Assembly (NCBI GenBank): GCA_049512075.1
Contig: JBEKXL010000005.1
Location: forward strand, 1 to 64,000
Reading direction: 5' to 3'
Length of the DNA: 64,000 nucleotides
From: Candidatus Bathyarchaeia archaeon
Lineage (GTDB): Archaea > Thermoproteota > Bathyarchaeia > Bathyarchaeales > Bathycorpusculaceae
Below are positions 46,009 to 64,000 of the stretch, one piece after another (positions within the stretch are counted from its first letter, which is position 1; every line of letters starts with the position of its first letter). The translations under genes were made by a program, and so were the position numbers. The notes under the pieces are model-generated. The model was given only the letters and a program-made list of their open reading frames with translations. It searched no databases and was not told the DNA's origin.

Positions 46009-47120
46009 TTGAGCGAATGGTGATGGTAAGAACGGTTCGAACGTCACTTTCATTGTGCGGAGTAAGTTTGTCAAACCCTCTGATTCTCGCCGCGGGACCG
46101 TACGGACGCGACGGCAAGACCTTGGAACGCGCGGTGAGGGCAGGTTTTGGCGCAGTTACGACAAAAACGATTAGGCTTGTTGCGGCCAGAAACCCTTTCC
46201 CTAACATGGCCCGGATAGGCAGGGACGCGCTGATTAACGCTGAGAAATGGTCTGACCTTCCTCTTCAAACGTGGGTTACGCACGAGATACCTGCGGTGAA
46301 GCATCTTGGGGTGCCGGTGATCGCCAGCATCGGGTTCACAGAGAAAGAAGCTGGAAAAATCGCTCCGCTGGTTGAAGAGGCTGGCGCTGACTTCATCGAA
46401 ACTGTCACTTACGACGCGGATCAGGTTTTGCCGACGGTTAAAGCCGCCAAGTCCGGAGCGAAAGTTCCTGTGATAGCTAAGGTAAGCGCGAATTGGCCGG
46501 ATTTCCTGAGAATAGCGGTCAAAGCTGAGAAGTTTGGTGCCGACGCCGTTTCAGCGATAGACTCTGTGGGTCCCGTGTTGGCGATAGATGTTGAAACTGG
46601 AAAACCCTTTCTTGGCAATGCGAACGGCGAAGGATGGCTTTCCGGGTCCGCTATTCACCCAATGGCCGTGAGATGCGTTGCCGAAATAGCCAAGCGAGTG
46701 AAGATACCAGTAATAGGTATAGGCGGGATTTCAAACAGTCAAGACGCTGTTGAGATGATGATGGCAGGCGCCCATTGTGTTGAACTGTGCACCGCCCCCG
46801 TCCTCCATGGACTGCAAATCGTCAATCGCATAAAGAACGAGCTTGTCGAATTCATGGAACTGAAGGGCTACAAGTCCATTCAGGAGCTGCGCGGAATCAC
46901 GCTAAAACATCTGGAGAAACAGAAAGAAGAAAGCAAGAGAAGACTACATCCACAGATCGATCGTGAAGCCTGCACTTCATGCGGACTTTGCGCAAATCTC
47001 TGTCCATATCAGGCATTGGCTTTGAGCGAGGGAAAAGTAATCTCATACAAATTAGACTGTCTCAGCTGCGGTCTATGCTATTCCGTTTGTCCTCGGCACG
47101 CCATAAAACTCAGGAGCTGA
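45996..47120 (+). CDS. Dihydroorotate/dihydropyrimidine dehydrogenase-like FMN protein with 2x[4Fe-4S]
   Basis: NPLILAAGP, GAVTTKT, VPVIAK, GWLSG, IGIGGI; CTSCGLCANLCP and CLSCGLCYSVCP. Confidence 0.82.
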   Translation: MEYLIERMVMVRTVRTSLSLCGVSLSNPLILAAGPYGRDGKTLERAVRAGFGAVTTKTIRLVAARNPFPNMARIGRDALINAEKWSDLPLQTWVTHEIPAVKHLGVPVIASIGFTEKEAGKIAPLVEEAGADFIETVTYDADQVLPTVKAAKSGAKVPVIAKVSANWPDFLRIAVKAEKFGADAVSAIDSVGPVLAIDVETGKPFLGNANGEGWLSGSAIHPMAVRCVAEIAKRVKIPVIGIGGISNSQDAVEMMMAGAHCVELCTAPVLHGLQIVNRIKNELVEFMELKGYKSIQELRGITLKHLEKQKEESKRRLHPQIDREACTSCGLCANLCPYQALALSEGKVISYKLDCLSCGLCYSVCPRHAIKLRS

Positions 47121-49066: not shown

Positions 49067-50916
49067 GCGTTGCAGGCTTTCAGCCCGAGTTCTTTGAGCT
49101 TTTCTTTTCGGGGGGTTCCCTGCTTGGACCATCCCCTAAGACGGTAGTATTTCGAGAGCATCCTGTCCAGTTCGACTGTGCTTCCTTCGAGTGGTTCTTT
49201 GAGGAACCTCTGGGGTAGCTGATCGTCCTTTCGAGAGAACCCCTCTCGTACGTTGAAGCATCGTTCCAGGTTGACGATTCTTTCTCCACAGTTCAAGAGT
49301 TCTTCTTCGGTGAAATTCTCTCCTGTCAACGCTGTGAGGGCTTTTGCAAAATCTGAAGGCATGAAAACGTAGGTTTCGGTCGTGGTGAATTTGCAGACGC
49401 CTAAGGCGTCCGTGATTGCGCAATAGTTTTCAGTGAAAACTACAATTTCAGGCTTGTACGTTGGGTTCCTCGTGTCCAAGATCTTTTCCAAAGGCTTTCG
49501 GGGGAAGAGCTGCTTCGCAACTTCCGTTTTTCGTGCAGAGTCAATCGTTGGCAGAGCGTAGAGGTGATCTGCACCGCGGTTAGATACGGCGTGGCCCAAG
49601 CCGAAGGCTTTCAGAGTTCTCGACTCCTGTCTCGGTATCTCCATTCTCTTAACGTGCATCGCAAACCTGCTTGCCTGTCCGCCTATTCTCTCAGATGCTC
49701 TCGCCGTGCCTTCCGCCAAGACATCGCCGAATCCCTTGCGATGGGCAATCATCCGGATGAGTTCCAGCGTGCTTTCAGCGTTACCCCATTCTAGGGGGAG
49801 TCCCGTTTCCTCCTTGGATATCAAACCCTTTTCGTAGAGTTCCATCGCGAAGGACACTGTCACGCCGGTTGAGATGGTGTCCAACCCCAGTTCATTGCAA
49901 AGCTGGTTGGCCTTCATGATCACGCTGAAATCTGCAATCCAGCACATCGGCCCGAAAGAGTCTATGCTTTCGTACTCTGGTCTCGAGCCCTCCAGAGGCG
50001 CGTATTTCCCTTCCGTGACTCTTGCGTATGCTCGACAGTGGATGGGACATGAGTAACATGTTTCTGGTTTGAGGAAATATCTCTCCCTTATCGTTTCTCC
50101 TGAAATCTGTTCAGCCCATGGAAACCTGGCGATCTGATGGTTCTTGGCTGGAAGGTCTCCTGTCTCATTCTTCGTGGCAATAAGCCACGGCGTGCCATAA
50201 TTGCACAGGCCTTTCAGTTGTGGGTTCTGAGGAGACCAGCTTTTGAGAGCAGCCGTGCATAACTCGCGGAATTTTTCAGGATATGCGGCCTCAACCTTGT
50301 CTTTTCCGGTCACTGCCACTGCTTTCAAGTTTTTGGAACCCATAACCGCTCCCAGTCCACATCTGCCAGCTACTCTGTCCCTGTCGGTTATGATTGAGGC
50401 TATTCGAACCAAGTTCTCGCCCGCCGGTCCTATGCAGGCAACACGGCACTTACCTATTTCTTCCTGAACTGCCTTTATCGCCTCGCTCGTTGTCCTCCCC
50501 CAGATGTGTGCGGCTGACTTCAACGTCGCAGTTTCGTTTTCAACGTGCAGATACGCGGGGTTTCTTGCTTTTCCTGATATGTGTATCAGGTCGTACCCAG
50601 CGAATTTCAGCTCTGGACCGAAGTAACCGCCAGCATGGGCGTACCCTAAACCGTTTGTGAGTGGCGATTTTGCTGCCACTGTTATTCTTGAAGAAGTCGG
50701 CCACATGGTTCCAGCTAGTGGTCCTGCGGAAAAGAGCAGGATGTTTTCAGGTGAAAACGGGTCTGTTTTTTCTTTCAGCTCTTCGAAAAGGTAGTACGAA
50801 GTTAGGCCACGTCCACCCAAGAACTTCTTCAGCATTGGCTTTTCAAGGCTATATTTTTGAACTTCGCCTGAAGTCAAGTCTACGTTTAGTGCTTTTCCCG
50901 TCCAACCGGATGTCAC
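49054..50916 (-). CDS. Tungsten-containing aldehyde:ferredoxin oxidoreductase family
   Basis: GWTGKALNVDL, GGRGL, KSPLT, GRCGLGAVMGSK, CYSCPIHC, PEYES, RGADH. Confidence 0.92.
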   Translation of the reverse strand: MTSGWTGKALNVDLTSGEVQKYSLEKPMLKKFLGGRGLTSYYLFEELKEKTDPFSPENILLFSAGPLAGTMWPTSSRITVAAKSPLTNGLGYAHAGGYFGPELKFAGYDLIHISGKARNPAYLHVENETATLKSAAHIWGRTTSEAIKAVQEEIGKCRVACIGPAGENLVRIASIITDRDRVAGRCGLGAVMGSKNLKAVAVTGKDKVEAAYPEKFRELCTAALKSWSPQNPQLKGLCNYGTPWLIATKNETGDLPAKNHQIARFPWAEQISGETIRERYFLKPETCYSCPIHCRAYARVTEGKYAPLEGSRPEYESIDSFGPMCWIADFSVIMKANQLCNELGLDTISTGVTVSFAMELYEKGLISKEETGLPLEWGNAESTLELIRMIAHRKGFGDVLAEGTARASERIGGQASRFAMHVKRMEIPRQESRTLKAFGLGHAVSNRGADHLYALPTIDSARKTEVAKQLFPRKPLEKILDTRNPTYKPEIVVFTENYCAITDALGVCKFTTTETYVFMPSDFAKALTALTGENFTEEELLNCGERIVNLERCFNVREGFSRKDDQLPQRFLKEPLEGSTVELDRMLSKYYRLRGWSKQGTPRKEKLKELGLKACNAYPP

Positions 50917-51010: not shown

Positions 51011-52027
51011 CTAGGTTTTGAAGGATGAAATGATGTCCGTCCCAGCTGACGTTATCCCTTTTTTCCCATCAGGCATAACGAAGATCATCTGTGTCACTCC
51101 AGCTTTGAAGAATTCTTCAACTCTTCCGAGACATTTGTTGGGCTTCCCAGCCACCGAAAACTCATCTATCATTTCATCCGTCATCAAGCCCATCGCTTCA
51201 GCGTCCATTCCTTTCTGCAAGGCTTCTCGAATAGATGCTACACGTTCTATCTTAGTGCCCAATGCCTCATGCACTGAATTCGCGGTGAAAGCAGTCATAA
51301 AAGTGGCCAAATGTCTCACTCTCTTCCTAGCCTCAGAGTCATTCTCGGCGATGGCAAAAGGGAGAATGTTGCCCACGTCTATTTCATCCATGCTCCTCCC
51401 CGCCTTTGAGGCCCCTTCCTCAATTGTTTTCAACGCGTTCTCAATGTAATGAAAAGGCGTGTTCAATAGAGAACCGTCAGCCAATTCGCCGACCATCTGC
51501 ATAAACTTGGGGCTTCTGGCTGCCAGATAAACTGGAACCTTGGTCTTCGGATGAAAAGAAAGATGAACGCCGTTTGCCTTTATCATTTCTCCATCATAGT
51601 CCACAGTTTCGCCAGCCAATACCCGATTCATAACGTTGATACCCTCCCGAACTGTGGCTAAAGGTTTCTCCCACATCTTTATTCCCAACGGTCTGAGAGG
51701 CATTTCTCCTCCGGGCCCCAAACCGACGACAACGCGTCCATTCGCCATTTCCTCGAGCGTGGATGCAAAGACGGCTAAGAGCGCCGGATGTTTCGTGTAG
51801 AAGTTGCATATGCCCGTTCCAATCTTAATCTCGGATGTTTTGAGAGCCACGGTTGTCATGTTTACAATAACGTCCCTGCAAAGAGGCGAAGGATTCTCGT
51901 CCGCAATCCAAACGTGTTTGAAACCATGCGTTTCAGCTGCCTTGGCCAGTTTCGCCGTGTCCAAGGCGGGAGCGAAACCAGCGAGGTTCAGTCCAAAAGT
52001 TCTTGTGCGAGCCATGTTTGTCTTCAC
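51011..52027 (-). CDS. LLM-family (likely F420-dependent) reductase, Mer-like
   Basis: AETHGFKHVWIADE, IGTGICNFYTKHPA, GLGPGG, VPVYLAA..PK....GELADG. Confidence 0.8.
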   Translation of the reverse strand: MKTNMARTRTFGLNLAGFAPALDTAKLAKAAETHGFKHVWIADENPSPLCRDVIVNMTTVALKTSEIKIGTGICNFYTKHPALLAVFASTLEEMANGRVVVGLGPGGEMPLRPLGIKMWEKPLATVREGINVMNRVLAGETVDYDGEMIKANGVHLSFHPKTKVPVYLAARSPKFMQMVGELADGSLLNTPFHYIENALKTIEEGASKAGRSMDEIDVGNILPFAIAENDSEARKRVRHLATFMTAFTANSVHEALGTKIERVASIREALQKGMDAEAMGLMTDEMIDEFSVAGKPNKCLGRVEEFFKAGVTQMIFVMPDGKKGITSAGTDIISSFKT

Positions 52028-52076: not shown

Positions 52077-53042
52077 ATGCTGAGCGTCAATAAATCAGCT
52101 GCTTCGATTTGTAAGAAGATGCTGGATGAACCTGAGAAACTGAACATCAAATGCACCCGTTTCAAGAGTGGAGCATACTTGATTGACACCGGAAACAAAG
52201 CCACAGGGGGAATACAGGCAGGCTTGTATGTGACCAAGATATGCTTAGGAGGCGTGGGAAACGTATCGTTAACGTCGATGGATTTGGAAGAAATATCACT
52301 TCCAGCTGTAATGGTCTCAACAGATTTTCCGATTCTTTGTCTCCTGTGTCAAGCATCAGGTGGCTACCGAGAGGCGATGGAAGGCTGGATCAACTTCAAC
52401 GTCGGCTCGTACAATGCCATTGCGAGTGGACCGGCAAGAGCGTTGGTTCACGAACCCAAGAAACTGTTTGAAATGATTCCGTACCTGGACTCAGCTGAAG
52501 AAGCGGTGGTAGTCCTTCAATCGGAGCAGTATCCGAATGAGGAGGCTGCTGATTTGCTGGCAGAAAAATGTGGGGTCAACCCGGAGAATCTATATTTGGT
52601 TCTTGCTCCGCTTTCAAGCATGTCTGGACTCATTCAGGTGACCGGAAGGAGCGTTGAAAACGCGATGGTGAAGCTGCACACTCTTGGCTATGATGGGAAC
52701 AGCGTGGAAAACGCGTGCGGAATTGCGCCATTGCCTCCGCTGAAATCGACGCGGATGGTACCGGATGATATGCTTTCGTACGGGAGCATCGTCCACCTTT
52801 ACGTAATGCCTGATGAAGGAAGGGATTTGGAGCAAATCGCCTACAAGATGCCTTCAAGGACGTCAAAGTGTTACGGTCGATCTTTTTCAGATTTGATAAA
52901 GGAACATGGTGGGCTGAGGGGAATAGACCTTGATCTCTTTGCTCCCGCGGAGGTCTATGTTAACGACTTGTCAACTGGCGAACTGTACCACTCTGGCAGC
53001 GTCAACAGCACGTTGATCAAGACCATGGCAGGTCTTGGCTGA
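52077..53042 (+). CDS. mch: Methenyl-H4MPT cyclohydrolase-like protein, paralogue 1
   Basis: MLSVNKSA, ICLGG, ASGPARAL, QVTGRSVE, YGRSF, LFAPAEVYVNDLSTG. Confidence 0.85.
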   Translation: MLSVNKSAASICKKMLDEPEKLNIKCTRFKSGAYLIDTGNKATGGIQAGLYVTKICLGGVGNVSLTSMDLEEISLPAVMVSTDFPILCLLCQASGGYREAMEGWINFNVGSYNAIASGPARALVHEPKKLFEMIPYLDSAEEAVVVLQSEQYPNEEAADLLAEKCGVNPENLYLVLAPLSSMSGLIQVTGRSVENAMVKLHTLGYDGNSVENACGIAPLPPLKSTRMVPDDMLSYGSIVHLYVMPDEGRDLEQIAYKMPSRTSKCYGRSFSDLIKEHGGLRGIDLDLFAPAEVYVNDLSTGELYHSGSVNSTLIKTMAGLG

Positions 53043-53142
53043 ACTGGCCAGGCAACTGACCTTGCAATCGTTGCATATGGGAAGTGAACCGATCTTTTTA
53101 ATACACGACTGTCCAAGAAGGTTTGGGAACGCGATTAAGACT

Positions 53143-54636
53143 ATGCGGTCATCGTCCTGCCTGCTTGGCGTAGACATCGGAACAGAAGGCTGCAAAGCAA
53201 TAGTGTTTAACCTCAGGGGCGAATCTCTCGCGCGATCGTACCAACAGTATTCAATCACGATTCCTCAGTCTTCATGGGCGGAGCAAGACCCTCAACTGTG
53301 GTGGAAGGCTGTAAGAAAAAGCGTGGCAGATGTAGTCAAACAAACTTCCAATCGTCGAGGAGAAATTGCATGCGTCACCGTTTCGGGTCAATCTCCAGTT
53401 TTGGTTCCAGTTGACAGACGCGGCAATGCGTTAATGAATGCCCTCATCTGGATGGACCGGCGTGCGGTTGAGCAGTCCAAGACGATGGCCGAGACTGTTG
53501 GGATCACGGATGACGCTTCTATGAACTTGCCGAAAGCTATTTGGGTTAAAGAAAACAGGCCGCAGATTTTCCAGGAGACCTACAAGTTTCTTCAAACAAC
53601 GGACTTCATCGAATTCAAGTTGACAGGCAACTTTGTCACCGATTGGCTTAACGCAGGCACCTTTCACTTCGATTATCGCAGGCATGAGTGGCCCACTGGC
53701 CTCTTGAACCAGCTTGAAATATCAGTCGAGAAACTCCCAAAGGTTTTGCGCTCTTCAGAAATTGTCGGCACTGTGACTGATGTGGCCGCTCGTGAAACTG
53801 GTCTTAAGAAGGGCACACCAGTGGCGGCGGGTGGAATCGACGCCTATTTAGCCATAATAGGCGCAAACGCATTGACCGTGGGCTCAGCATGTGAGATAAC
53901 AGGAAGCTCCACGTGCCTGATGGTTCCTTCAAGACAGGATGTTCATGATCCTGAGAAGAGAGTGCAGTGTGAAAAGTTTCCACTATTGCCCAATTTCTGG
54001 ATCACATGGGGAACGATGTCTTCAACTGGGGCTTCTCTGAGATGGTTCCGAGACAACGTCGAACCCCAAGCATCCTACCAAGACTTGGACGCCGAAGCTG
54101 AAAAAGCACCCCCAGGATCCGGCGGGCTCATCTTTCTACCTTACCTAATGGGAGAGCGAAGCCCGTTATGGGACCCATACGCCAGAGGGGTCTTCATAGG
54201 CTTATCATTAAATCATTCTCGCAAGCATCTGATAAGGGCCGTGCTTGAAGGGTGCGCGTTCGGCATAAGACACAACTTGCAAATAATCGAGCAGTTGGGT
54301 GCGAAGGTAGATGAGATCAGAAGTTGTGGCGGAGCTGCAAAGAGCAGGTTCTTTGGACAAATCAAGGCTGACGTAACCGGGAAGACAGTGGTTATTCCGC
54401 GGGAAATCGAAGCCTCCGCTCTTGGCGCGGCCATACTCGCATCGGTCGGCGCAGGATTCTATCCAAATCTGAGAAAGGCCGCTGAAAACATGGCGCACAC
54501 AAAATGCAGAATCAACCCTCGAGAAAGCCTCTTTGAGAAATACGACTTCTCGTTCCGAATGTACAAAGACGCCTATCTACATTTGAAAAAGTACTTCAAA
54601 CGCTACTATTCCTCTGGAAACGCAGTTTCGAACTGA
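53143..54636 (+). CDS. FGGY family carbohydrate kinase (xylulokinase-like)
   Basis: GVDIGT, WAEQDP, WMDRR, GGID, FLPYLMGERSP, EGCAF, GGAAKS. Confidence 0.9.
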   Translation: MRSSSCLLGVDIGTEGCKAIVFNLRGESLARSYQQYSITIPQSSWAEQDPQLWWKAVRKSVADVVKQTSNRRGEIACVTVSGQSPVLVPVDRRGNALMNALIWMDRRAVEQSKTMAETVGITDDASMNLPKAIWVKENRPQIFQETYKFLQTTDFIEFKLTGNFVTDWLNAGTFHFDYRRHEWPTGLLNQLEISVEKLPKVLRSSEIVGTVTDVAARETGLKKGTPVAAGGIDAYLAIIGANALTVGSACEITGSSTCLMVPSRQDVHDPEKRVQCEKFPLLPNFWITWGTMSSTGASLRWFRDNVEPQASYQDLDAEAEKAPPGSGGLIFLPYLMGERSPLWDPYARGVFIGLSLNHSRKHLIRAVLEGCAFGIRHNLQIIEQLGAKVDEIRSCGGAAKSRFFGQIKADVTGKTVVIPREIEASALGAAILASVGAGFYPNLRKAAENMAHTKCRINPRESLFEKYDFSFRMYKDAYLHLKKYFKRYYSSGNAVSN

Positions 54637-54644
54637 CGGAGGGC

Positions 54645-55640
54645 ATGAACATAAATCCCGAAGGATTCGTTAAAGACCTCGAAAACTCTCAAGAAATTCC
54701 TGACCACATCAAACGGCCGAACATCGTAGTTGTCGGCAGCCTACACATGGACTTGACGATCAAGGCCAAGACAATCCCCCGTCTAGGTGAGACAGTGCTC
54801 GGTGACGAGTTCAAGATGTCCCCCGGAGGAAAAGGGGCGAATCAAGCTGTAGCCGCAGCAAAACTGGGGGGAAACGTCACATTAATCGGCAGAGTCGGAA
54901 CTGAGGCTTTCGGAACTGACCTGATAAGAAATACTGGACAGCACCGGATAAACACGAAGTTTATCGTACAAGACAAAGAAACACAGACAGGGCTAGCGTT
55001 GATAATGGTTGACCAGAACGGCAACAACATTATCGCCGTTGCTCCAGGCGCAGATCTGAGGTGCAGCAAAGAAGACATTGACCACGCTGATTCAGTCATA
55101 AAGTCCGCTGACATTTTTCTCGCACAATTAGAAACACCTTTCCCGGTTGTTCAACACGCTATCCAGAAAGCCTTTCAATTCAGAGTCAAGGTGATTTTGA
55201 ATCCGTCTCCAGCTCACAGACTGCCTGAATCTCTACTCAAGAAAGTGTTCGTACTGACTCCGAATGAAAGTGAGGCAGAGAAACTGAGCGGTATTAACAT
55301 AACGGGTTTAAACTCTGCAAAAGAGGCGATCACAGAAATCTTGAAAAAAGGTACCGAAAACATCGTTCTCACGATGGGAAAAGAAGGAGCCCTAGTCGGA
55401 GCAAAAGGAGAAATAGTCCACGTCAAGAGTCCCAAAGTAAACCCGGTGGACACCACCGGTGCGGGAGACGCTTTCTGTGGCGCGTTGGCAGTGGCGATAT
55501 CTTCAGGAGAAAACTTGGAAAAAGCAGTAGTCTACGCGAACTGTGCAGGAGCTTTGGCCACGACCAAGATAGGAGCTCAAGAAGCCTTGCCCACGCGAGA
55601 AGAACTTGAAAGATTCATGAGAAGAAAGGGTCTCGTCTAA
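54645..55640 (+). CDS. rbsK: Ribokinase
   Basis: VVGSLHMD, GGKGANQA, NPSPA, TPNESE, DTTGAGDAF, GAQ. Confidence 0.88.
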   Translation: MNINPEGFVKDLENSQEIPDHIKRPNIVVVGSLHMDLTIKAKTIPRLGETVLGDEFKMSPGGKGANQAVAAAKLGGNVTLIGRVGTEAFGTDLIRNTGQHRINTKFIVQDKETQTGLALIMVDQNGNNIIAVAPGADLRCSKEDIDHADSVIKSADIFLAQLETPFPVVQHAIQKAFQFRVKVILNPSPAHRLPESLLKKVFVLTPNESEAEKLSGINITGLNSAKEAITEILKKGTENIVLTMGKEGALVGAKGEIVHVKSPKVNPVDTTGAGDAFCGALAVAISSGENLEKAVVYANCAGALATTKIGAQEALPTREELERFMRRKGLV

Positions 55641-55753
55641 GCTGTCGATTTTGCGCCCTTTTTGCGCCAGAAACCCCGATTCGACGACCACGGCGTGCCG
55701 CCTAACAGGATATATACCTTCATGTTTATTGTTATGCGCGAGAGGCAAGGGAC

Positions 55754-56782
55754 TTGAAGACAGCGGTATACTATGGGCCTCGAGATGTGAGAATTGAAGA
55801 AAAAGAAGTCCCAGAAATCGGTGACAAAGAATTATTGGTTAAGGTCCATGTTTGCGGCGTCTGTGGGACAGATGTTAAAACGGTCCTGAGAGGGCATCCT
55901 CTGATTAAACCTCCAGCGGTTCTTGGGCACGAAATTGCAGGCGATATCATCAGGATAGGAAAAGATGTCACGGAGCACAGAATAGGCGAGCGCGTCGTCG
56001 TCGCCCCGTATGTTCCGGACGGCACATGCTACTACTGCCTGCGTGGGCGATACACGTTGTGCACTGGGCTTTATGAAGAATCACCTACACCGGGCGGGTT
56101 TGCTGAATTCGTAAAGGTGCCGCCTAACATTGTGAAGAAAGGAACGCTTGAAATTCCGAACACAGTTTCATACGAGGAAGCGGCTCTCACCGAGCCTTTG
56201 GCGTGTTGTCTTCACGGAATCGAAGAATGCCACGTTGGTGTAGGCGACTGCGTTGCGATCGTCGGCGACGGCCCAATAGGCCTGATGCATTTGCAGCTGG
56301 CAAAAGTCAAGGGAGCGACGAAGATAATCCTGAGCGGGCAGCTGAATGACCGATTAACGTTGGCGGAGGAACTTGGCGCAAGCGTGACGGTCAACGAAAC
56401 CGAGGAAAACCCTGTCAAAAAGGTTATGGACGAAACGAACAACCGAGGGGGGGATGTGGTCATTGTTGCTGTAGGCAGTGTGGCAGCGGTGGACCAAGGC
56501 CTGAAACTGGTCAGAAAGGGAGGGATAGTGAATCTCTTCGGTGGATTTCCTGGCCAGTCAGAACTCAAGCTTGACCCCAACTTAATTCATTATTCGGAAG
56601 TCACAGTAACAGGAACCTTCGGGTTCTCACACATCAATTTTGCTAGGGCTCTTCAACTGATAAGCACAAGAAGCGTTAAAATGAATAAGCTAATAACACA
56701 CAGGTTCAAACTCGATGAAGTCCTGACAGCCATAGACGTGTTAGCAGATCGCAAAGGGCTTAAAGCCGTTGTGACAATTTAG
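55754..56782 (+). CDS. Zn-dependent polyol (sorbitol/iditol-type) dehydrogenase
   Basis: CGTD, GHE, DGTCYYC..G...LC structural Zn site, EPLAC, GDGPIG. Confidence 0.88.
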   Translation: MKTAVYYGPRDVRIEEKEVPEIGDKELLVKVHVCGVCGTDVKTVLRGHPLIKPPAVLGHEIAGDIIRIGKDVTEHRIGERVVVAPYVPDGTCYYCLRGRYTLCTGLYEESPTPGGFAEFVKVPPNIVKKGTLEIPNTVSYEEAALTEPLACCLHGIEECHVGVGDCVAIVGDGPIGLMHLQLAKVKGATKIILSGQLNDRLTLAEELGASVTVNETEENPVKKVMDETNNRGGDVVIVAVGSVAAVDQGLKLVRKGGIVNLFGGFPGQSELKLDPNLIHYSEVTVTGTFGFSHINFARALQLISTRSVKMNKLITHRFKLDEVLTAIDVLADRKGLKAVVTI

Positions 56783-56786
56783 CTCA

Positions 56787-57596
56787 ATGAAAAAAGAAGG
56801 GAATAACGTGTCTCAAGTTGGCAAAATCCTTCGAATGGGCCGAATATTCGATGAGAAAACCAACAGAACGCTTATTGTAGCTATGGACCACGGCCTGTTC
56901 ATGGGGCCCGTGAAGGGGCTGGAAAAACCCCTCGAAGTCGCCAGAAAAGCGTTGAAAAGTGGTGCAAACGCTCTGGTAGTCACCCCCGGTGTATGCCGTT
57001 TGATCGCTGGAGAAGTAAGAGGCAAGGCCGGAATCATACTTCGAATTGACGGGGCAACCACGGCGTATGGGCCTGATTTTTTTGACGTCCGCAGAATTGC
57101 CAGCGTCAAAGACGCTGCAAGAATGGGTGCAGATGCCGTTATCGCCATGGGATACATGGGAACTCTGAAAGAGAATGAAACCCTGGCAAACCTCAGTCTC
57201 ATCGCCCGTGAATGCGAAGAATTCGGCGTGCCACTCGTGGCAGAGATGATCCCCGTTCAATGTGAAAAAATCAAAGATCCGTACGACGCCGAAATCGTCA
57301 GTCTCGCGGCCCGCGTGGGGGCTGAAATCGGAGCGGACTTGATCAAGACTCACTACACTGGAACTGAAGGCACCTTCAGAGAAGTTGTCAAGGGTTGTCC
57401 GGTGCCCATAGTCATCGCTGGGGGCCCAAAGATGAAAACCGCAGAACAAGCGCTGAAAGTGGCGAAGGAGGCCGTCAACGCGGGAGCAGTCGGAGTGGCT
57501 TTCGGGCGCAACGTGTGGCAGCATGAGAACCCAGAGGCTATGACAAAAGCGATAGCCAAGGTTGTGCATGGAAAAGCTCGATCCAAGAGGCTCTGA
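56787..57596 (+). CDS. Class I aldolase (DhnA/LsrF/ADH-synthase family)
   Basis: AMDHG, GADLIKTHYTG, IAGGPK, GRNVWQ. Confidence 0.88.
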   Translation: MKKEGNNVSQVGKILRMGRIFDEKTNRTLIVAMDHGLFMGPVKGLEKPLEVARKALKSGANALVVTPGVCRLIAGEVRGKAGIILRIDGATTAYGPDFFDVRRIASVKDAARMGADAVIAMGYMGTLKENETLANLSLIARECEEFGVPLVAEMIPVQCEKIKDPYDAEIVSLAARVGAEIGADLIKTHYTGTEGTFREVVKGCPVPIVIAGGPKMKTAEQALKVAKEAVNAGAVGVAFGRNVWQHENPEAMTKAIAKVVHGKARSKRL

Positions 57597-57676
57597 AAGG
57601 GTTTGTAGAAAGAACAGCAGAGTGCCAGGTCGTCTCGGAGCGGGAAGCCAGTCTTGCAAGTCCGTGCGCTCGCTTT

Positions 57677-59161
57677 CTATTTTATGGGTTTTTCGGCTAG
57701 GCAGTATTTGCATCTGCTCGGCATCAGTTTTGCTGAAGGACATTGTTTGCAGTAGAAGAATGGAAGGTAAGGCTTTTGCGGTTCCAAGGCGATGAGTTCA
57801 GTGCCGTACAGGCATATCATGGGATCACTGTACAGGTGAAAAGGGTCGTCTGCAAACCGAAGCAATCCACTGAAACGTGCCGTGATGGGACATTCTGGCC
57901 ATGAGTATCTCTGCGGATTCTTCAAGACTTCATTGTCATCTATGGGCTGAAGGTCGATTTTGACGCCGTGAATTTGACCGCCCAGACCAGTCGGAGGCTT
58001 CTCAATCAAGTGTTCTCCCTGAGATAGGAAGCTGACGAATTCATCGTTCATGCATTCATACTCGAACTTTTTAGGATTTTCGAGAAGTAGGTTGAAGTAT
58101 CTTCTCATGAACAGGTCGTTCACCATTTCCGACGTGAACCCGTCAAGCCGCATTATGTGTGCAGCTCCGGCGGCTGTTACCTCCCACGTTGGTATTTCTG
58201 AAGGGTTGCCGAGCTTTCCGTTCTTTTCCGCTCTTTTGATTGTGCTTTCATAGGCTTCTGTCAGGCTCTCAAGGATGGCCATTTCAATGTCGCCCTTGCA
58301 TAGGTTGTAAGTGGTTTGAGAGACGTGGTGGAAGTCTCCGGCAGCCCAGAATGGAATCAAGCTGAGGTTTGCGTAGTGTACGCCTGCCTCAGCAGCCTTA
58401 ACGGTTGCATCGAAAATTCGGTCCTTAAACATCGTCATGCATTTCTCGTAGTCGAAGGATTTTTGTCCCGTTTCTTTCATTAGCTGAACTTGCGTTGCGA
58501 TTGGGTTTAGCCACATTTCTTTCATTCTTTCTTTCTCAGCCTCAGCCGCTTTGTGGACATCGTTGGTGTCCGCTAGTACGGTGAGAAACTTTGAACCGAA
58601 CATTACGCTGTAACTGGTGTTGCGTGCCGCCGATACCGCGTTGATGAAAGCCCATTTGTACTCAGTTTTCATCGGAAGGTTGTCAATGATTCTTCTGAGC
58701 AGGTTTGAGAATGAGCCGGGAGTGGCCACATAATCTGCAATCCACGACGGCCCATAGCGACCGCAAAACCGGGCCAGAACTTCCTCCGTGATCAAGTCGG
58801 TGGACTTGTCAACAGCTTCGGCGACCTTTAAGGAGGCGCGCTTGAAATCTCGGTCGAACTCGTACAGGATTTCAAAAACCGCCGTCGTCTGATAGTGTTC
58901 CAGCCAAGGCTCATCTTCAGGACGCACATAGTCCGTGAGGCTGCTGATAACATCGTACGCGGCCTTCGCTGAAACCGAATAGAGGTCAAAAACGTCCTTC
59001 GACTGTTTCCCGCAGGGGACAAAGCGCTCCTTCGCATGAAGCATCGGCTGCCAATCACTTACCTTAAACCGTCCACCACGCTCCTTTTTGACTGTGTCCA
59101 CCCATGCCTTCTGGATGCTCAAGATTTCATCCGCGATTTTTTCAGCCAATTTACCTCTCAT
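57677..59161 (-). CDS. DUF2193-like protein
   Basis: RFCGRYGPSWIADYVATPGSFSN, GDFHHVSQTTYNLCK, PQRYSWPECPITARFS.L.RFAD, C-terminal CKQC...CKYC. Confidence 0.7.
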   Translation of the reverse strand: MRGKLAEKIADEILSIQKAWVDTVKKERGGRFKVSDWQPMLHAKERFVPCGKQSKDVFDLYSVSAKAAYDVISSLTDYVRPEDEPWLEHYQTTAVFEILYEFDRDFKRASLKVAEAVDKSTDLITEEVLARFCGRYGPSWIADYVATPGSFSNLLRRIIDNLPMKTEYKWAFINAVSAARNTSYSVMFGSKFLTVLADTNDVHKAAEAEKERMKEMWLNPIATQVQLMKETGQKSFDYEKCMTMFKDRIFDATVKAAEAGVHYANLSLIPFWAAGDFHHVSQTTYNLCKGDIEMAILESLTEAYESTIKRAEKNGKLGNPSEIPTWEVTAAGAAHIMRLDGFTSEMVNDLFMRRYFNLLLENPKKFEYECMNDEFVSFLSQGEHLIEKPPTGLGGQIHGVKIDLQPIDDNEVLKNPQRYSWPECPITARFSGLLRFADDPFHLYSDPMICLYGTELIALEPQKPYLPFFYCKQCPSAKLMPSRCKYCLAEKPIK

Positions 59162-59335
59162 AGGCGAACCTCGTTTCAAACTCAGCCCTCTATCTACACG
59201 CGCGTCTTCACGCGTGTTTGAATTGCGTCTGTGATCCTTCATAAATATTGTCATACATCAAACACACTCTTCCGATAGGCTCAGAACGGCATTCTCTGAG
59301 TTGAAAAAGTATTATTAGTGACTCATTAACCTTGG

Positions 59336-60127
59336 ATGAGGCTGGAGGGATTCTCGGTGCGTCAAGGAGAACTAAGGGGCAGCGTGGCCTTGGTTACCGG
59401 AGCTGGGTCTGGGATTGGACGTGCCATTGCTGTTCTTTTCGCTTGTGAAGCTGCGAAAGTGGCTGTTGCTGATGTGAGTGAAGGTGACGGAAAGAATACA
59501 GTCGAGCTCATCAAGAAAGAGGGTGGGGACGCGATTTTTGTCCAAGGAGACGTATCCAAGTCTACTAGTGTCAAGAGAATGGTCGAAGCAACTGTTGAAA
59601 AATACGGGAAGCTTAACGTACTCGTTAACAATGCGGGAGTCGAATCCACAGGCTCTGTCGTGGAGGTTACGGAGGAGAACTGGGACAAGGTCATCGATAT
59701 CAACTTGAAAGGCACTTTTCTCTGCTCAAAGTACTGCGCGCCAAGAATAATTGAAAGTGGGGGCGGTGCGATTATCAACATTGCCTCAGTGCTGGGTCTG
59801 GTAGGTTCTAAAGGTGAAGCTGCTTATTGCGCCTCAAAGGGGGGCATGATATCGCTTACGAGAGCCATGGCATTGGATTTCGCTTCCGAGAATGTCCGTG
59901 TGAACTGCATCTGTCCAGGCTCTGTCCTCACTCCGACGTTTAAACGAGTGATGATTGCTTCAGGAGACTATGACATCGCATTTGCCCGAAACCTGGAAAA
60001 GATACCGCTTAGACGCGTCGCAGCTCCTGAAGAAATCGCCCAAGCAGCACTGTTCTTGGCGTCGGAGAAATCTTCCTATATGACTGGAGCCGCCTTGGTA
60101 ATGGATGGCGGGTGGTCAACATCTTAG
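59336..60127 (+). CDS. Short-chain dehydrogenase/reductase
   Basis: TGAGSGIG, NNAG, YCASK, VNCICPG, DGG. Confidence 0.92.
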   Translation: MRLEGFSVRQGELRGSVALVTGAGSGIGRAIAVLFACEAAKVAVADVSEGDGKNTVELIKKEGGDAIFVQGDVSKSTSVKRMVEATVEKYGKLNVLVNNAGVESTGSVVEVTEENWDKVIDINLKGTFLCSKYCAPRIIESGGGAIINIASVLGLVGSKGEAAYCASKGGMISLTRAMALDFASENVRVNCICPGSVLTPTFKRVMIASGDYDIAFARNLEKIPLRRVAAPEEIAQAALFLASEKSSYMTGAALVMDGGWSTS

Positions 60128-60144
60128 GCAAAAGGTGAAGTCAC

Positions 60145-61239
60145 TTAGAAAATGGTTTTCTCAGTCGCTTTGTCAAAAATGTGAATACGCTGGTCGTTAA
60201 ACTTCACAAAGACTTTTTCTCCTTCTTCGAATCTGAAGAGAGGATCAACTTTTGCTGTGATTATGGATGACCCGATTTCTAGGCTTGCGTATCCGGTGTC
60301 TCCGAAATGTTGGAAAAGCCAGACTTTGGCTTCAACTGCGCCTTTGGACTGTTCTTTGTTCACGTAAACGTGTTCGGGTCTGATGCCCATCACTGCGTCG
60401 CGCTCAGTGAACTTTTTCTCTTTCATTGAGTCTCTGCTGCTTTCAGAGATTTCCATTTGGAACGCGCCAGTTTCCACGTATGGCTCACCGTTCTTTTCCA
60501 ATAAGTGGCAATCAACGAAATTCATGACTGGTATGCCCACGAACGTAGCGACGAACTTGTTGATTGGGTGATCGTAAATGTTCAGCGGCTTGTCAATTTG
60601 ATGCAGCAAACCGTCCTTCATAACGGCTATTCTGTCAGCAAGCACCATTGCTTCAGCCTGGTCATGAGTGACATAAACCGTGGTCGTTTTCAGCCTTTCG
60701 TGCAGCTTCTTCAATTCGCCTCTCATCTTGATTCTCAGGATCGCGTCTATGTTTGAAAGTGGCTCGTCCAAAAGGTAGATGGAAGGCTTCCTGATTGCCG
60801 CCCTGGCTAAAGCGACACGTTGTCTTTGTCCTCCGCTGAGTTGGCCAGGCCTGCGTTCCATGAGGTCACCAATCTGAAGTAGATCCGCCGTTTCCTGGGC
60901 TCTCTTCTTAATCTCTTCTTTCGGAACATTTGTGACTTGGAGGCATAGAGTGATGTTGTCATAAACTGACATGTGTGGATAAAGAGCATAGTCCTGGAAA
61001 ACCATGGCAACTTTTCGTTCCTTCGGTTCAAGGTCAGTCACCCGTTTTTCATCAAAGAAGATGTCTCCGCTCGTCGGTTGCTCTAGTCCTGCAATCATCC
61101 TGAGGGTCGTTGTTTTACCGCATCCAGAAGGTCCAAGCAGAACAAGGAACTCGCCGTCCTCTATCTCAAGGTTCAACTCGTCGACAGCCTTCACTTTCTT
61201 GAAGTGTTTGCAGAGATCCTTAAGGGTTATTTTTACCAA
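60145..61239 (-). CDS. Sugar ABC transporter ATP-binding protein (MalK/MsmX type)
   Basis: GPSGCGKTT, VFQDYALYPH, LSGGQRQR, DEPLSN, VTHDQ, TOBE domain. Confidence 0.93.
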   Translation of the reverse strand: MVKITLKDLCKHFKKVKAVDELNLEIEDGEFLVLLGPSGCGKTTTLRMIAGLEQPTSGDIFFDEKRVTDLEPKERKVAMVFQDYALYPHMSVYDNITLCLQVTNVPKEEIKKRAQETADLLQIGDLMERRPGQLSGGQRQRVALARAAIRKPSIYLLDEPLSNIDAILRIKMRGELKKLHERLKTTTVYVTHDQAEAMVLADRIAVMKDGLLHQIDKPLNIYDHPINKFVATFVGIPVMNFVDCHLLEKNGEPYVETGAFQMEISESSRDSMKEKKFTERDAVMGIRPEHVYVNKEQSKGAVEAKVWLFQHFGDTGYASLEIGSSIITAKVDPLFRFEEGEKVFVKFNDQRIHIFDKATEKTIF

Positions 61240-61293
61240 CTATTTTCACACGTTGTTTAGCTTTTGTTGGTAACCATGATTCTTTTCTGTTTC

Positions 61294-62301
61294 TTAAGGT
61301 TTGCCCATGACATTGTGAACCCGCGGATTCTGTGCTTTGCTCAGTCTGAGGCATTTTCTTATCGTTAAGGGATTCACTTTGCCGGCCTCACATATTTCCC
61401 CTGTCTTCAGGTTGTTTATCATAACCTGGGCTGGTCGAAAGATACCGGGGTAGCCGGGGATTTTCCTGAAATCGTTTTTTGCATGTTTCAGCAATTCTGA
61501 AAAGGTTTTTCCATAGATAGGGGTGGACTCAAACACTAGTTCCTTCGCAAGTCTGTGTATGTCTTCATTGTCTGGCTCTATGGTCATGTACACTGTTCCA
61601 CCATAGCAAAGGAAATCATCTGGAAACGTCTTCATCTCGTCCGATGGACAGACGGGAACTATCGGAGCTGTTCCAACCATTTGTCTGACTTTTCTCACAT
61701 CATAGTGGAGAATTTCCCACATTGTGAATGTAACATCCTCTATTGCTCGGCCTGCAATCTGGGTCGCGCCTGCGATGCTTCGTAGGGGAGTAATGAGCAT
61801 GAACAAGGACGCAGGATCAATATTGCATTCCACAGCGATTCTTTTGGACAACTGCACGGAAGGCAGGTCGTCCATTTGAAGTACTATCACGCCGACCCTG
61901 GAATCGTCATTAACATCCAGCATGTCAAAGAGTTCCTTAGGCTTCTGCGCCAGAACTCTTGCAGGACCAGAGGCAATTGAGGTTGTTTCTTTCTGTTTAA
62001 GCAAGGGATAGCCCGCTTGGACGCCCAAAGTAGCAATAGCAGGCGAGTCTGTCATTACTGTTGCTGCGGGGAGTATCAGGTCTCCGAGTTGTACCATGGT
62101 CAACGATGCCTTGCCAAGTCCACCGAGACAGATCTCGATGATCAGCCTGCCAACTTCAAACCCTCCTCGTGCATGGACTCCACAATCCAATATGGTGGCT
62201 CCACTGTCCGACATTGTGACTACTACACCGAACTTCTCGGGGCACTCCAGAATTCCGTTAACTATCCTGAAAGAAATTTCATTCACTTTTATTCTAGGCA
62301 T
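61294..62301 (-). CDS. mch: Methenyl-H4MPT cyclohydrolase-like protein, paralogue 2
   Basis: IKVNE, GATILDCGV, EICLGGLG, ASGPARVL, QIAGRAIE, YGKTF, PAQVMINNLKTG. Confidence 0.85.
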   Translation of the reverse strand: MPRIKVNEISFRIVNGILECPEKFGVVVTMSDSGATILDCGVHARGGFEVGRLIIEICLGGLGKASLTMVQLGDLILPAATVMTDSPAIATLGVQAGYPLLKQKETTSIASGPARVLAQKPKELFDMLDVNDDSRVGVIVLQMDDLPSVQLSKRIAVECNIDPASLFMLITPLRSIAGATQIAGRAIEDVTFTMWEILHYDVRKVRQMVGTAPIVPVCPSDEMKTFPDDFLCYGGTVYMTIEPDNEDIHRLAKELVFESTPIYGKTFSELLKHAKNDFRKIPGYPGIFRPAQVMINNLKTGEICEAGKVNPLTIRKCLRLSKAQNPRVHNVMGKP

Positions 62302-62311
62302 GTTGAATTCA

Positions 62312-63274
62312 TCAGGTTTCTTGCGCGTACTTGGGATCGGAGGTCTCATGCGAGTTTTCAACGAGTTCTCGCAGGTATATCTTGTTTTTCCCCCAGAGAC
62401 CTCCTTGGTTGAAGCTGCTTATTCCTGTTATTCCTTGTATTCTTGTGATCGTGTCCAAGGAGACTCTCAAGCCCTTTTTCACGGTTTCCAGGTCTAGACT
62501 CCAGACCAGATACTCAATAACAGTGTTGACTCCTAGAGGAACTCTAGTTTCCGCGATCCTGTTACGGATAGTCGGGCACAAGAAAGTCGTGCTTGTCGCT
62601 TTTTCGTTTGTGTAATTAACGCCTCCAATTTTCGCTCCATTCAAACCTCCAAACGGGTGCATCACAAAGGCTCCATCAACCTCATCTTGAACCCTCTCGG
62701 CTGCGGCTCTGGTTGCCAATAGAGCGCAAGAAATGTCCTGACAGAAGAGTTCAAACGCACCATCAAAACTTGTGGTTAATCCAAAGGATTTCTCGACTAT
62801 CGATTCGCCACTCATCACTGGAATGCGGTATATTTTTCTTCCTTCGAGCTGGTCTTCCGTCTCGTAGCCGTCGCCCCAGCGCCTGACCGTTTCGCCCGAG
62901 TTCGTTGTAGCAAGTGTTTTTCTTTTCGGGACTGCGTTGAAAACTGCAACTGTAGGCATGTGTGGAGTTTGGCAGAGCATGTTGGTGAATGCGTCTTCAA
63001 ACATTTTCCTTCCGTCTTCAGTTTCAATGCTCATGCTTCTATTTCCTCGCAGAAGGACAAGGAAGCCTGGTCTCCTATCAGGGGTTTTCGTTGGCGATAC
63101 AGAGTTGCCCAGAAAGCCTTCGATCGGCGAGAAGGTTATGATTCCCCTGCACAGTCGTTGAGCGTTGGCCAGCGCAGCTTCTCTTGTGAGGCTGGTTACG
63201 AGGATTTCGGAGGATATTATTTCGCTGGATTCTATGTAAGTGTCTTCGATGTCCACGCCATTGATCTTCAGCAT
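62312..63274 (-). CDS. ftr: Formylmethanofuran:H4MPT formyltransferase-like protein, divergent
   Basis: KINGVDIEDTY, TPDRRPG, WGDGYE, RIPVMSGE, LCPTI, VIEYLV, FNQGGLWGKNKIYL. Confidence 0.8.
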   Translation of the reverse strand: MLKINGVDIEDTYIESSEIISSEILVTSLTREAALANAQRLCRGIITFSPIEGFLGNSVSPTKTPDRRPGFLVLLRGNRSMSIETEDGRKMFEDAFTNMLCQTPHMPTVAVFNAVPKRKTLATTNSGETVRRWGDGYETEDQLEGRKIYRIPVMSGESIVEKSFGLTTSFDGAFELFCQDISCALLATRAAAERVQDEVDGAFVMHPFGGLNGAKIGGVNYTNEKATSTTFLCPTIRNRIAETRVPLGVNTVIEYLVWSLDLETVKKGLRVSLDTITRIQGITGISSFNQGGLWGKNKIYLRELVENSHETSDPKYAQET

Positions 63275-63309
63275 CAGATTGCAGGTCCGTGGTGGTTGGT
63301 GCTCACGTT

Positions 63310-64000
63310 TTACCAAGGATTGCTCATGAGTCTTCCAATAATGTCTTTGTGAACTCTGCCAGCCTTGTGCATCCTTCCTGTCCTAGTGTCGCTTATAGCG
63401 AACTCTCCAATTATGAAACCAAGTCCTTCTTTGGCGAGCTTGTGCAAATCCAACGTCGGATCGATGTACTTCTTTTCTTCCACTGCCATGTGATAGAATG
63501 ATGTGCCGAAGGTGTTCGGATAGTTCTCTATTACTGATTCCTTAACCATCGTCCCGAAATCCTCTCCTTCTTCTGAACGAACCCAACAGTGAACTGTACC
63601 GCCATATCTGATCATGTCATCGGGCCAGCTGCAAGGTTGCTGCAGAGCTTTCGGCGAAACCGGCGAAATCGGTGTGGTTCCCATAACGTTCTCTATGCGA
63701 CGATAAGGAATCTTGTAATATTCAGTGAGTCGCCAGAACATGTCTTCCACACCCCGCGAGGAGGTTTGAGTGGTTCCCGTTATGCTGTCTGTGGGAATGA
63801 CAACCAAGTATAGATTTTTCGGGTCGATTCTGCACCTCTTTGCGATGATTTTTGAGAATTCTTCATCTGGAAGACCGTCCATGCGTGAACGTGTTTGGAC
63901 CAAGAGGACCGCGTTGTCAGGGTGAGGATCTTCGTAGGGCCATTTCTCAAATATCTTGGCTGGTTCTTGAGCTATAGCCTTCGCCGGTCCTGATATCCAG
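63310..64000 (-). CDS. mch: Methenyl-H4MPT cyclohydrolase-like protein, paralogue 3 (5'-truncated by window edge)
   Basis: Frame is open to the window end: WISGPAKAIAQEPAKIFE...QTSSRGVE...PDDMIRYGG...FGTSF...SDTRTG. Confidence 0.8.
   Translation of the reverse strand, partial: WISGPAKAIAQEPAKIFEKWPYEDPHPDNAVLLVQTRSRMDGLPDEEFSKIIAKRCRIDPKNLYLVVIPTDSITGTTQTSSRGVEDMFWRLTEYYKIPYRRIENVMGTTPISPVSPKALQQPCSWPDDMIRYGGTVHCWVRSEEGEDFGTMVKESVIENYPNTFGTSFYHMAVEEKKYIDPTLDLHKLAKEGLGFIIGEFAISDTRTGRMHKAGRVHKDIIGRLMSNPW

Follow-up and report, generated by a model that had tools for sequence, protein, structure and literature searches.

Why should an archaeal genome carry three divergent genes for an enzyme of one-carbon (C1) metabolism that it also encodes elsewhere? 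The question is raised by a stretch of 64,000 nucleotides from a Candidatus Bathyarchaeia archaeon (assembly GCA_049512075.1, contig JBEKXL010000005.1, positions 1 to 64,000), called the window in the following (G000:C5:1-64000, with G000 standing for the genome of 2.73 Mb in 86 contigs). Its last part holds three genes, MchA, MchB and MchC, for proteins related to methenyltetrahydromethanopterin cyclohydrolase (Mch), which carry Asp-Asp (D-D) at the position of a conserved Asn-Asp (N-D) motif and are therefore called DD-type here. We are confident that they are intact, evolve under purifying selection, are members of an old DD-type division within the Mch superfamily and are not the housekeeping cyclohydrolase for methenyl-tetrahydromethanopterin (methenyl-H4MPT), which is encoded on another contig. 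Since this old branch of Mch sits inside a presumed cluster for the breakdown of nitrogen compounds that is shared, by source labels, with bacteria, its job probably differs from that of the housekeeping enzyme.

Three DD-type genes and a housekeeping Mch

MchA, MchB and MchC match the Pfam family PF02289 along their full length with scores far above the cut-off of 25 bits (Table 1). The NCBIfam equivalog model TIGR03120 has a cut-off of 228.8 bits, which is passed by MchA and MchB; MchC, on which this model was run only as the window-truncated protein (63310-63999), remains below it with 111.2 bits (PF02289 115.4 bits for the same part). The initial annotation had reported three Mch proteins with SGPA(R/K) and Q-x-x-x-R-x-x-E segments, and all strings quoted for them were found in the translations: SGPARA, QVTGRSVE, MVPDDMLSYGS and CQASGG in MchA, SGPARV, QIAGRAIE, TFPDDFLCYGG and VQAGYP in MchB, and SGPAKA, QTSSRGVE and SWPDDMIRYGG in MchC. 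The strong divergence between the copies is likewise borne out by pairwise identities of 35% (A-B), 30% (A-C) and about 32% (B-C), MchC being the most divergent of the three. For MchB, the length of its orthologues of about 323 residues suggests that the true start lies near 62301 (MPRIKVNE).

The predicted fold of MchA is that of a canonical Mch (EC 3.5.4.27). An AlphaFold2 model of MchA, the one copy that was modelled, reached a mean predicted local distance difference test score of 91.9, with low confidence at a replaced loop (residues 95-97). In a Foldseek search it aligned to the structures 1qlm, 4fio, 4gvq and 4gvr with template modelling scores of 0.88-0.92 (0.91 to 1qlm), at a sequence identity of 34-38% to 1qlm, 4fio and 4gvq. 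A search of the ESM Atlas returned generic Mch clusters only.

All three copies described initially are present, but the genome also holds a fourth, canonical Mch. It contains GSQYAGW, lies at C18:2-325(-) and breaks off after 108 residues, where the contig ends; its remaining part was not found in the G000 assembly, where PF02289 gave four matches in total. The fragment adjoins open reading frames that were read by eye as formylmethanofuran dehydrogenase subunits. Among 40 relatives of G000, an Mch match occurred in 35, mostly as one canonical copy with about 355-425 bits on PF02289 where whole, compared to 198-291 bits for MchA, MchB and MchC. Low-scoring types were restricted to the two genus-mates G002 (A, B and C) and G003 (A and C). 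In a second sample of 400 other genomes across the class, C-type orthologues were found in three (G350, G110 and G278), each from a different family.

Purifying selection is indicated by dN/dS ratios against G002 of 0.11 for MchA, 0.31 for MchB, 0.02 for MchC and 0.17 for an Ftr-like gene that lies between MchC and MchB, and against G003 of 0.15 for MchA and 0.06 for MchC. The MchA orthologue of G003 (C1, L041:18598-19602(-)) contains an in-frame TAA at a position where others have Gln (GGV*AGLY); it is either a pseudogene or affected by a sequencing error.

A collection of 5.8 billion proteins yielded about 25 orthologues for each gene (24 for MchA, P0053-P0078 for MchB, P0027-P0052 for MchC) down to approximately 50-60% identity; below this range canonical Mch appeared at about 40%. 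The source labels of the close homologues read Bathyarchaeia. In a tree with 109 rows, of which 21 were A, 24 B, 27 C and 37 canonical, each of these four sets formed one side of a branch with a support of 99-100, and the branching order of A, B and canonical Mch was not resolved. A profile search for the Mch superfamily among 1.84 billion cluster representatives gave 1525 proteins at E<=1e-3 and 285 at E<=1e-30. From the best 150 of these and reference rows, 144 near-full-length rows were obtained, of which 25 read D-D, 105 N-D and 14 otherwise; the proportion of 25 in 144 overstates the DD share because the search profile was built from DD-type sequences. On the 144-row tree the D-D label corresponds to one change (support 90). 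The motif and loop columns were then masked in a set of 72 rows, which comprised every DD row, a random draw of 42 from the 105 N-D rows and 5 from the remaining 14; in this tree the 25 DD rows still grouped together with one aberrant N-D row (P0220) at 96% support.

According to the source labels of metagenome-assembled genomes (MAGs), by which bacterial and Asgard hosts were assigned throughout, the DD-type division also extends to Asgard archaea, Bipolaricaulota and one Oscillospiraceae MAG. Its most distant clade includes MAG proteins of Bipolaricaulota (three) and Oscillospiraceae (one), and the Asgard MAGs fall into another DD clade. H4MPT is not expected in Bipolaricaulota or Oscillospiraceae. 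Of the suggestion of a distinct Mch subfamily, the non-housekeeping branch is thus retained; the three copies, however, are not one set of recent paralogues but three old orthologue groups within a larger DD-type division.

As a side observation, G350 encodes an extra island-type Mch (cluster P0177; C12, L037:5956-7938) with the motif M-G-M-A-N-D beside its own Ftr-like and Amidohyd2-like genes. The N-D row P0220, which joins the DD clade once the motif columns are masked, is related to this cluster.

Canonical Mch is a homotrimer, and the three copies had been considered as possible subunits of a heterotrimer. An obligate A/B/C heterotrimer is unlikely because the gene complement varies between genomes. 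In G003, MchC is intact next to the interrupted MchA, MchB and the Ftr-like gene were not found in the cluster, and a search of the whole genome for a close Ftr-like orthologue was negative. G350 carries its A group on contig C19 and its B and C groups on C12 with the aberrant N-D-type copy; its Ftr-like genes number three. Three DD-type copies occur in G110, one A-type, one C-type and a further one that overlaps a Mer-like gene by four bases. The bacterial-type loci described below hold one or two Mch-like copies.

Conserved and replaced residues

A column-by-column comparison of the 25 DD rows with the 105 canonical rows revealed that nearly all conserved positions of canonical Mch are kept in the DD type, among them an Asp and several Gly of the N-terminal part, SGP, the residues of Q-x-x-x-R-x-x-E and the second Asp of the motif. 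Within the DD rows, SGP, the Glu and the second Asp are conserved in 100%, the Gln and the Arg in 84% each. The Glu and Arg of this segment are presumably the catalytic residues of Mch, as we take it from structural work on the Archaeoglobus fulgidus enzyme. The statement that a catalytic R-x-x-E is retained accordingly applies to MchA, MchB and MchC and, for the Glu, to the whole set, but for the Arg to only 84% of the 25 DD representatives.

Only two canonical elements are replaced, the G-R-T-N-D segment and A-G-W. The Gly of M-G-R occurs in none of the 25 DD rows (91% of the 105 canonical rows), the Thr of the motif is changed to Pro in 88% of the DD rows and the Asn to Asp. A-G-W is lost or replaced by insertions; its Ala remains in 24% and its Trp in 16% of the DD rows, compared to 87% and 90% of the canonical rows. 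At the position of the canonical S-Q-x-A-G-W, MchA reads CQASGG and MchB VQAGYP, as had been noted for these two complete copies, and MchC, which reads SMYVWVGVIPPP, is without it as well.

The canonical motif used as the reference is real: N-D was found in 95 of 96 canonical homologues, mostly as M-G/A-R-T/S-N-D (40 patterns listed), and the motif-bearing chains of the crystal structures read AMGRTNDCILYGG (1qlm) and AMGKTNDAVLFGG (4fio). D-D, for which an occurrence in ordinary Mch had to be considered, was present in no canonical Mch examined. The proposed 'PDD' signature holds in part. The change from Asn to Asp is constant in the A, B and C groups, whereas the Pro is not: C-type sequences also show W-A/M/S-D-D, two A-type sequences V-D-D and one A-type sequence P-E-D. 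Canonical (T/S)-N-D is better set against P/x-D-D. The DD-type genes are accessory genes of a genomic island.

Judging from the residues kept, the DD-type Mch may retain hydrolytic chemistry, and the replaced T-N-D and A-G-W elements would line the substrate pocket.

A recurrent gene neighbourhood

The island surrounds the Mch-like genes in two blocks (Table 1). In the first, MchA heads a same-strand run of two kinases, a Zn-dependent dehydrogenase and an aldolase, and is divergent from a Mer-like gene at a distance of 49 bp. Mer is by far the best-matching model of the luciferase-like monooxygenase (LLM) type for the latter, although both Mer cut-offs are missed. It is the only Mer homologue in G000; because orthologues among the 40 relatives were confined to G002 and G003, the gene is assigned to the island, and it also lies beside MchA in G350. 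In the second block, MchC, the Ftr-like gene and MchB are tightly packed on the minus strand. Both Ftr lobes of the Ftr-like protein pass the Pfam thresholds, whereas the NCBIfam models remain under their cut-offs (165.6 vs 297 and 160 vs 292.6 bits); the identity to the two ordinary Ftr copies of G000 is 26-30%. The block is accompanied by importer genes, an M19 peptidase and the amidohydrolase Amidohyd2, for which the best models, TRZ/ATZ chlorohydrolase, 5'-deoxyadenosine deaminase and 8-oxoguanine deaminase, were all under cut-off. A binding protein and two permeases of the ABC importer follow outside the window (C5:66322-69537), and 2-oxoacid dehydrogenase genes lie near the island.

Table 1. 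Positions of the DD-type Mch genes and of neighbouring genes in the window, with supporting matches (bits)
Feature	Positions	Strand	Matches and remarks
SsnA-like amidohydrolase	44638-46008	+	NF005540 345.9, cut-off 444
PreA/dihydroorotate-dehydrogenase-like reductase with ferredoxin domain	45996-47120	+	Pfam DHO_dh and Fer4; PreA model 204, below cut-off
AOR-family (aldehyde:ferredoxin oxidoreductase-type) protein 1	46979-49066	+	AFOR_N, AFOR_C
AOR-family protein 2	49054-50916	-	AFOR_N, AFOR_C; 77% identical orthologue beside Mer-like and MchA genes in G350
Mer-like F420-type LLM oxidoreductase	51011-52027	-	TIGR03555 259.3, cut-off 348.7; NF002619 256.5, cut-off 276
MchA, DD-type Mch-like, 321 aa	52077-53042	+	open frame; PF02289 291.4 (E 1e-86); TIGR03120 283.4
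FGGY xylulokinase-like sugar kinase	53035-54636	+	TIGR01312 377.9, cut-off 380.25; after MchA in G002, G003, G350
PfkB ribokinase-type kinase	54645-55640	+	TIGR02152 335.9, above cut-off of 299.65
Zn-dependent alcohol/polyol dehydrogenase	55754-56782	+	homologues in metagenome loci
DhnA/DeoC-type class I aldolase	56787-57596	+	PF01791; NF005556 270.4, above cut-off of 241
DUF2193 protein, 525 aa, Cys-rich C-terminus	57677-59254	-	PF09959 441.8; no NCBIfam model matched; kept in G002, G003, G350
Short-chain dehydrogenase	59336-60127	+	kept in G002, G003
MalK-type ABC ATPase	60145-61239	-	beside MchB or MchC in G002, G003, G350
MchB, DD-type Mch-like, 355 aa as listed	61294-62361	-	PF02289 272.7 (E 5.2e-81); TIGR03120 262.5
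Ftr-like protein	62312-63316	-	Pfam FTR 74.6, FTR_C 72.6; between MchC and MchB
MchC, DD-type Mch-like, 357 aa full	63310-64000 in window, continues to C5:64383	-	PF02289 198.4 full length

Both blocks recur in G350 at 50-80% identity and partly in G278, and neighbours are shared with G002 and G003 as well. Metagenome contigs were scanned with an alignment built from the most distant DD clade, and 17 further loci were obtained. Four of them are too short upstream; in 11 of the remaining 13 the Mch-like gene is directly preceded by an Ftr-like one that shares 32-37% identity with the copy of the island. The other two (L059 and L060) show a PreA-like gene at this place and a second Mch-like gene. 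Amidohyd2-like genes are present in 13 and the AOR pair in 7 of the 17 loci. SsnA-like and PreA-like genes are adjacent in five (L052, L054, L057, L059, L060), and L058 ends in a partial SsnA-like gene; the SsnA-like orthologues of these six loci are 40-43% identical to the protein in the window. Permeases together with a Zn-dehydrogenase, which lies upstream of them, occur in six loci (L047, L052, L054, L056 (partial), L057 and L062), PfkB homologues in L047, L050 and L062 and aldolase homologues in L047 and L054. A GlcD/GlcF-type oxidoreductase is encoded in L047 and in G350. L047 additionally holds a LacI-type regulator, a secreted metallophosphoesterase, a DAGK/NAD-kinase-type kinase and a protein of the ADP-ribosylglycohydrolase (ARH) family, L059 a xanthine-dehydrogenase-family enzyme and the S-component of an energy-coupling factor (ECF) transporter (Pfam match).

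Because the same genes return in G350, G278 and the metagenome loci, the region from about 44.6 kb to the end of the window is largely one recurrent catabolic module, composed of an importer, deaminase-type and SsnA-type amidohydrolases, a PreA-like reductase, two AOR-family proteins, a pentose kinase, a dehydrogenase and an aldolase. DD-type Mch and the Ftr-like protein are likely to be fixed parts of this module in archaea and, by source labels, in bacteria.

Possible functions of the DD-type Mch

In the full-text literature searched on Mch paralogues in Bathyarchaeia, on Mch-like and Ftr-like genes and on formimino groups with tetrahydromethanopterin, no description of the DD branch was found; supplementary trees may include such sequences. 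A preprint on Bathy-6 lists one Mch and two Ftr. The nearest published account (PMC9012536) is a discussion of Mch1 and Mch2 in anaerobic methanotrophic (ANME) archaea. The Mch2, Ftr2 and Mer2 of ANME and Archaeoglobus-type archaea are earlier cases of H4MPT-pathway enzymes with a divergent second copy whose role is not understood. They are treated there as enzymes of the pathway, akin to the Archaeoglobus Mch, and the PDB chain of A. fulgidus has the canonical S-T-N-D. There is a real chance that the DD branch marks a new pathway.

We tentatively propose, as a reading that may well prove wrong, that the DD-type Mch hydrolyse cyclic formamidine intermediates in a pathway for purine-like nitrogen heterocycles and that the Ftr-like enzyme removes the resulting formyl group. 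A purine-like heterocycle or nucleoside would be degraded reductively, without a molybdenum hydroxylase, to an imidazoline- or imidazole-type ring. The Glu/Arg machinery of the DD-type Mch would then add water to the N-CH=N carbon to give an N-formyl intermediate, and the Ftr-like enzyme would pass the formyl group to a C1 carrier, here H4MPT or methanofuran, and thereby into the Wood-Ljungdahl route. Each paralogue would act on a different intermediate, for instance on C2-type and C8-type carbons, rather than as part of one heterotrimer; the initial suggestion of successive intermediates is plausible. The change of Asn to Asp together with the loss of A-G-W would mark an altered substrate pocket. 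The ring-opening role is proposed because C-H amidine carbons resemble the methenyl carbon of methenyl-H4MPT.

Several genes point towards purines or nucleosides as substrates. Amidohyd2 is of the deaminase type, SsnA is paired with a reductase, genes for nucleotidase-like, glycohydrolase-like and ribokinase-type proteins are present, and L059 has a neighbour of the xanthine dehydrogenase family. A molybdenum domain of the xanthine dehydrogenase type was not found in G000. The combination of SsnA with a reductase follows the bacterial 2,8-dioxopurine pathway as described in bioRxiv 10.1101/2025.04.24.650524, and genes for both are common to that pathway and to the island module. There, the reductase and SsnA are followed by the hydantoinase HyuA and the carbamoyltransferase YgeW, by which a five-membered N-C-N ring is opened hydrolytically and a C1 unit is passed on. 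By analogy, the Mch-like and Ftr-like steps could correspond to these two. The protein families are unrelated, however, and the carbon leaves that pathway at the urea level as carbamoyl phosphate, in contrast to the formate level proposed here.

Several points weigh against such a ring-opening function. The near-complete set of canonical residues would suit a pterin-bound substrate equally. The Mer-like gene adjoins DD-type Mch in G000, G002, G003, G350 and G110 and makes up, with the Ftr-like gene, a set of three families that are not known outside H4MPT chemistry. In the G000 island, neither a nucleoside hydrolase nor a phosphorylase was recognised, and the ARH-like and GlcD-like genes seen in the bacterial-type loci are missing as well. 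Finally, the carbamoyltransferases encoded downstream are of the ornithine or N-acetylornithine type and not YgeW.

These carbamoyltransferases belong to a group of genes downstream of the island at G000:C5:74880-83579 (L005:10880-19579) with a carbamate kinase, two carbamoyltransferases, two pyridoxal-phosphate enzymes, a DgcN-like DUF1611 protein and a dihydropyrimidinase/allantoinase-like amidohydrolase. It resembles a set that converts ureido compounds via carbamoyl phosphate into ATP and is possibly, though not necessarily, part of the pathway encoded by the island. An assignment as orthologues of the E. coli ygeW/ygeX/hyuA cluster was rejected on account of the type of the carbamoyltransferases and of the pyridoxal-phosphate enzymes, which are threonine-synthase-like and CysK-like.

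In its widest form, the proposal would have DD-type Mch and Ftr-like proteins define an unrecognised anaerobic route for purine-type nitrogen heterocycles, without molybdenum or selenium hydroxylase and with carbons released at the formate level, in uncultured archaea (Bathyarchaeia and Asgard) and in methanopterin-free bacteria. In this generality it is possible but doubtful. If true, two families thought to be tied to H4MPT chemistry would have a second, carrier-independent life. The module is a testable candidate for the use of nitrogen-rich heterocycles by abundant anaerobes of peat and sediment, and the change of Asn to Asp plus one loop represents a natural experiment in which a very conserved active site was retuned. 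A practical consequence concerns annotation. Homologues of Mch and Ftr in MAGs are routinely taken as markers of the methanopterin-dependent Wood-Ljungdahl pathway or of methanogenesis, and the DD-type proteins are named methenyltetrahydromethanopterin cyclohydrolase or hypothetical protein in databases; if the DD branch does something else, C1-pathway genes are overcounted in Bathyarchaeia, Asgard archaea and some bacteria.

An unlikely but serious alternative stays closer to pterin chemistry. The Ftr-like enzyme would take a formimino or formyl group off a degradation product, for example a formimino-amino acid, and transfer it to H4MPT (or to tetrahydrofolate in bacteria), and the DD-type Mch would act as cyclodeaminase or cyclohydrolase, converting an N5-formimino-pterin into methenyl-pterin and ammonia; the additional carboxylate gained with the Asp would interact with the charged formimino group or with the ammonia that leaves. 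The retention of nearly all canonical positions, including the second Asp, and the Ftr-like and Mer-like partners are in accordance with this, and the classical clostridial purine route ends in formiminoglycine (bioRxiv 10.1101/2025.04.24.650524). The order of the genes in the 11 loci, Ftr-like before Mch-like, equals that in formiminotransferase-cyclodeaminase (FTCD), where the transferase precedes the methenyl-pterin-forming enzyme; FTCD has no sequence relation to either protein, and the likeness is by functional analogy only. Moreover, G000, G002 and G003 encode a glutamate formimidoyltransferase (TIGR02024, 356-364 bits), HutI and HutU. The cyclodeaminase domain FTCD_C (PF04961) gave no match in G000, G002, G003, G350, G110 or G278, and the DD-type proteins match PF02289 only. 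With the transferase present and no FTCD_C found, the step after formimino transfer is left without an assigned enzyme in the genus.

Against the formimino alternative, the transferase was not found in the DD-carrying genomes G350, G110 (74% complete) and G278 (84% complete), and histidine degradation was rejected for this reason as an explanation of the whole family. The hut genes are not on the contig of the island, A-G-W, present in 87-90% of canonical enzymes, is lost, and the full-text literature search gave no link between formimino groups and H4MPT enzymes. The hut-type cluster itself is located at G000 C13:29397-33533 (L046:4397-8533) and comprises the glutamate formimidoyltransferase (361 bits), an imidazolonepropionase and a urocanate hydratase.

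Improbable, in our view, is the uptake and salvage or breakdown of a methanopterin- or folate-like pterin, in which the Mch, Ftr and Mer paralogues would handle the C1-loaded head group and the kinases, polyol dehydrogenase, aldolase, and hydroxy-acid and 2-oxoacid dehydrogenases would take over a tail of ribitol, ribose and hydroxyglutarate. It would account for three H4MPT-enzyme families beside an importer, for the MchC-type gene of G110 that adjoins two ECF-type transporter sets (read by eye), for the ECF S-component in L059, and for pentose and polyol genes co-directional with MchA, the GlcD/GlcF-type oxidoreductase in G350 and bacterial loci and the 2-oxoacid dehydrogenases nearby. The first committed step of methanopterin synthesis seemed to fit as well, as beta-RFAP synthase (TIGR00144) reached only 17-23 bits, below cut-off, in the island-bearing genomes G000, G002, G350 and G110, compared to four control archaea above it; the same result in the island-free G004 makes it non-discriminating. 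The C-terminal domain of FolD was not found in these five genomes, though Mch and Ftr are encoded. Pterin salvage would further leave the SsnA-like, PreA-like and AOR-family proteins without a role, and its fit is purely one of pattern matching with the methanopterin structure.

The least probable reading, isofunctional Mch isoenzymes or heterotrimer subunits acting on ordinary methenyl-H4MPT, could draw on the scores of MchA and MchB above the equivalog cut-off and on the ANME precedent of Mch1 and Mch2 (PMC9012536), but is opposed by two highly conserved elements replaced in 25 of 25 DD representatives, by copies that are old, 30-35% identical and separately conserved, by the retention of MchC in G003 despite the nonsense codon in MchA and the missing cluster MchB, by the A group of G350 on another contig, and by labelled bacterial hosts that are not expected to hold H4MPT.

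A weak hint of expression comes from a 216-nt contig of a peat metatranscriptome that maps to MchB (61570-61785), for which carry-over of DNA is possible. Two soil metatranscriptome runs gave no such contig, a result that does not speak for absence of expression. DNA near-identical to positions 61294-64000 of the window occurs in metagenome runs that come from 17 studies with the labels peat, wetland, soil, sediment or freshwater; five of these runs may have given rise to the assembly.

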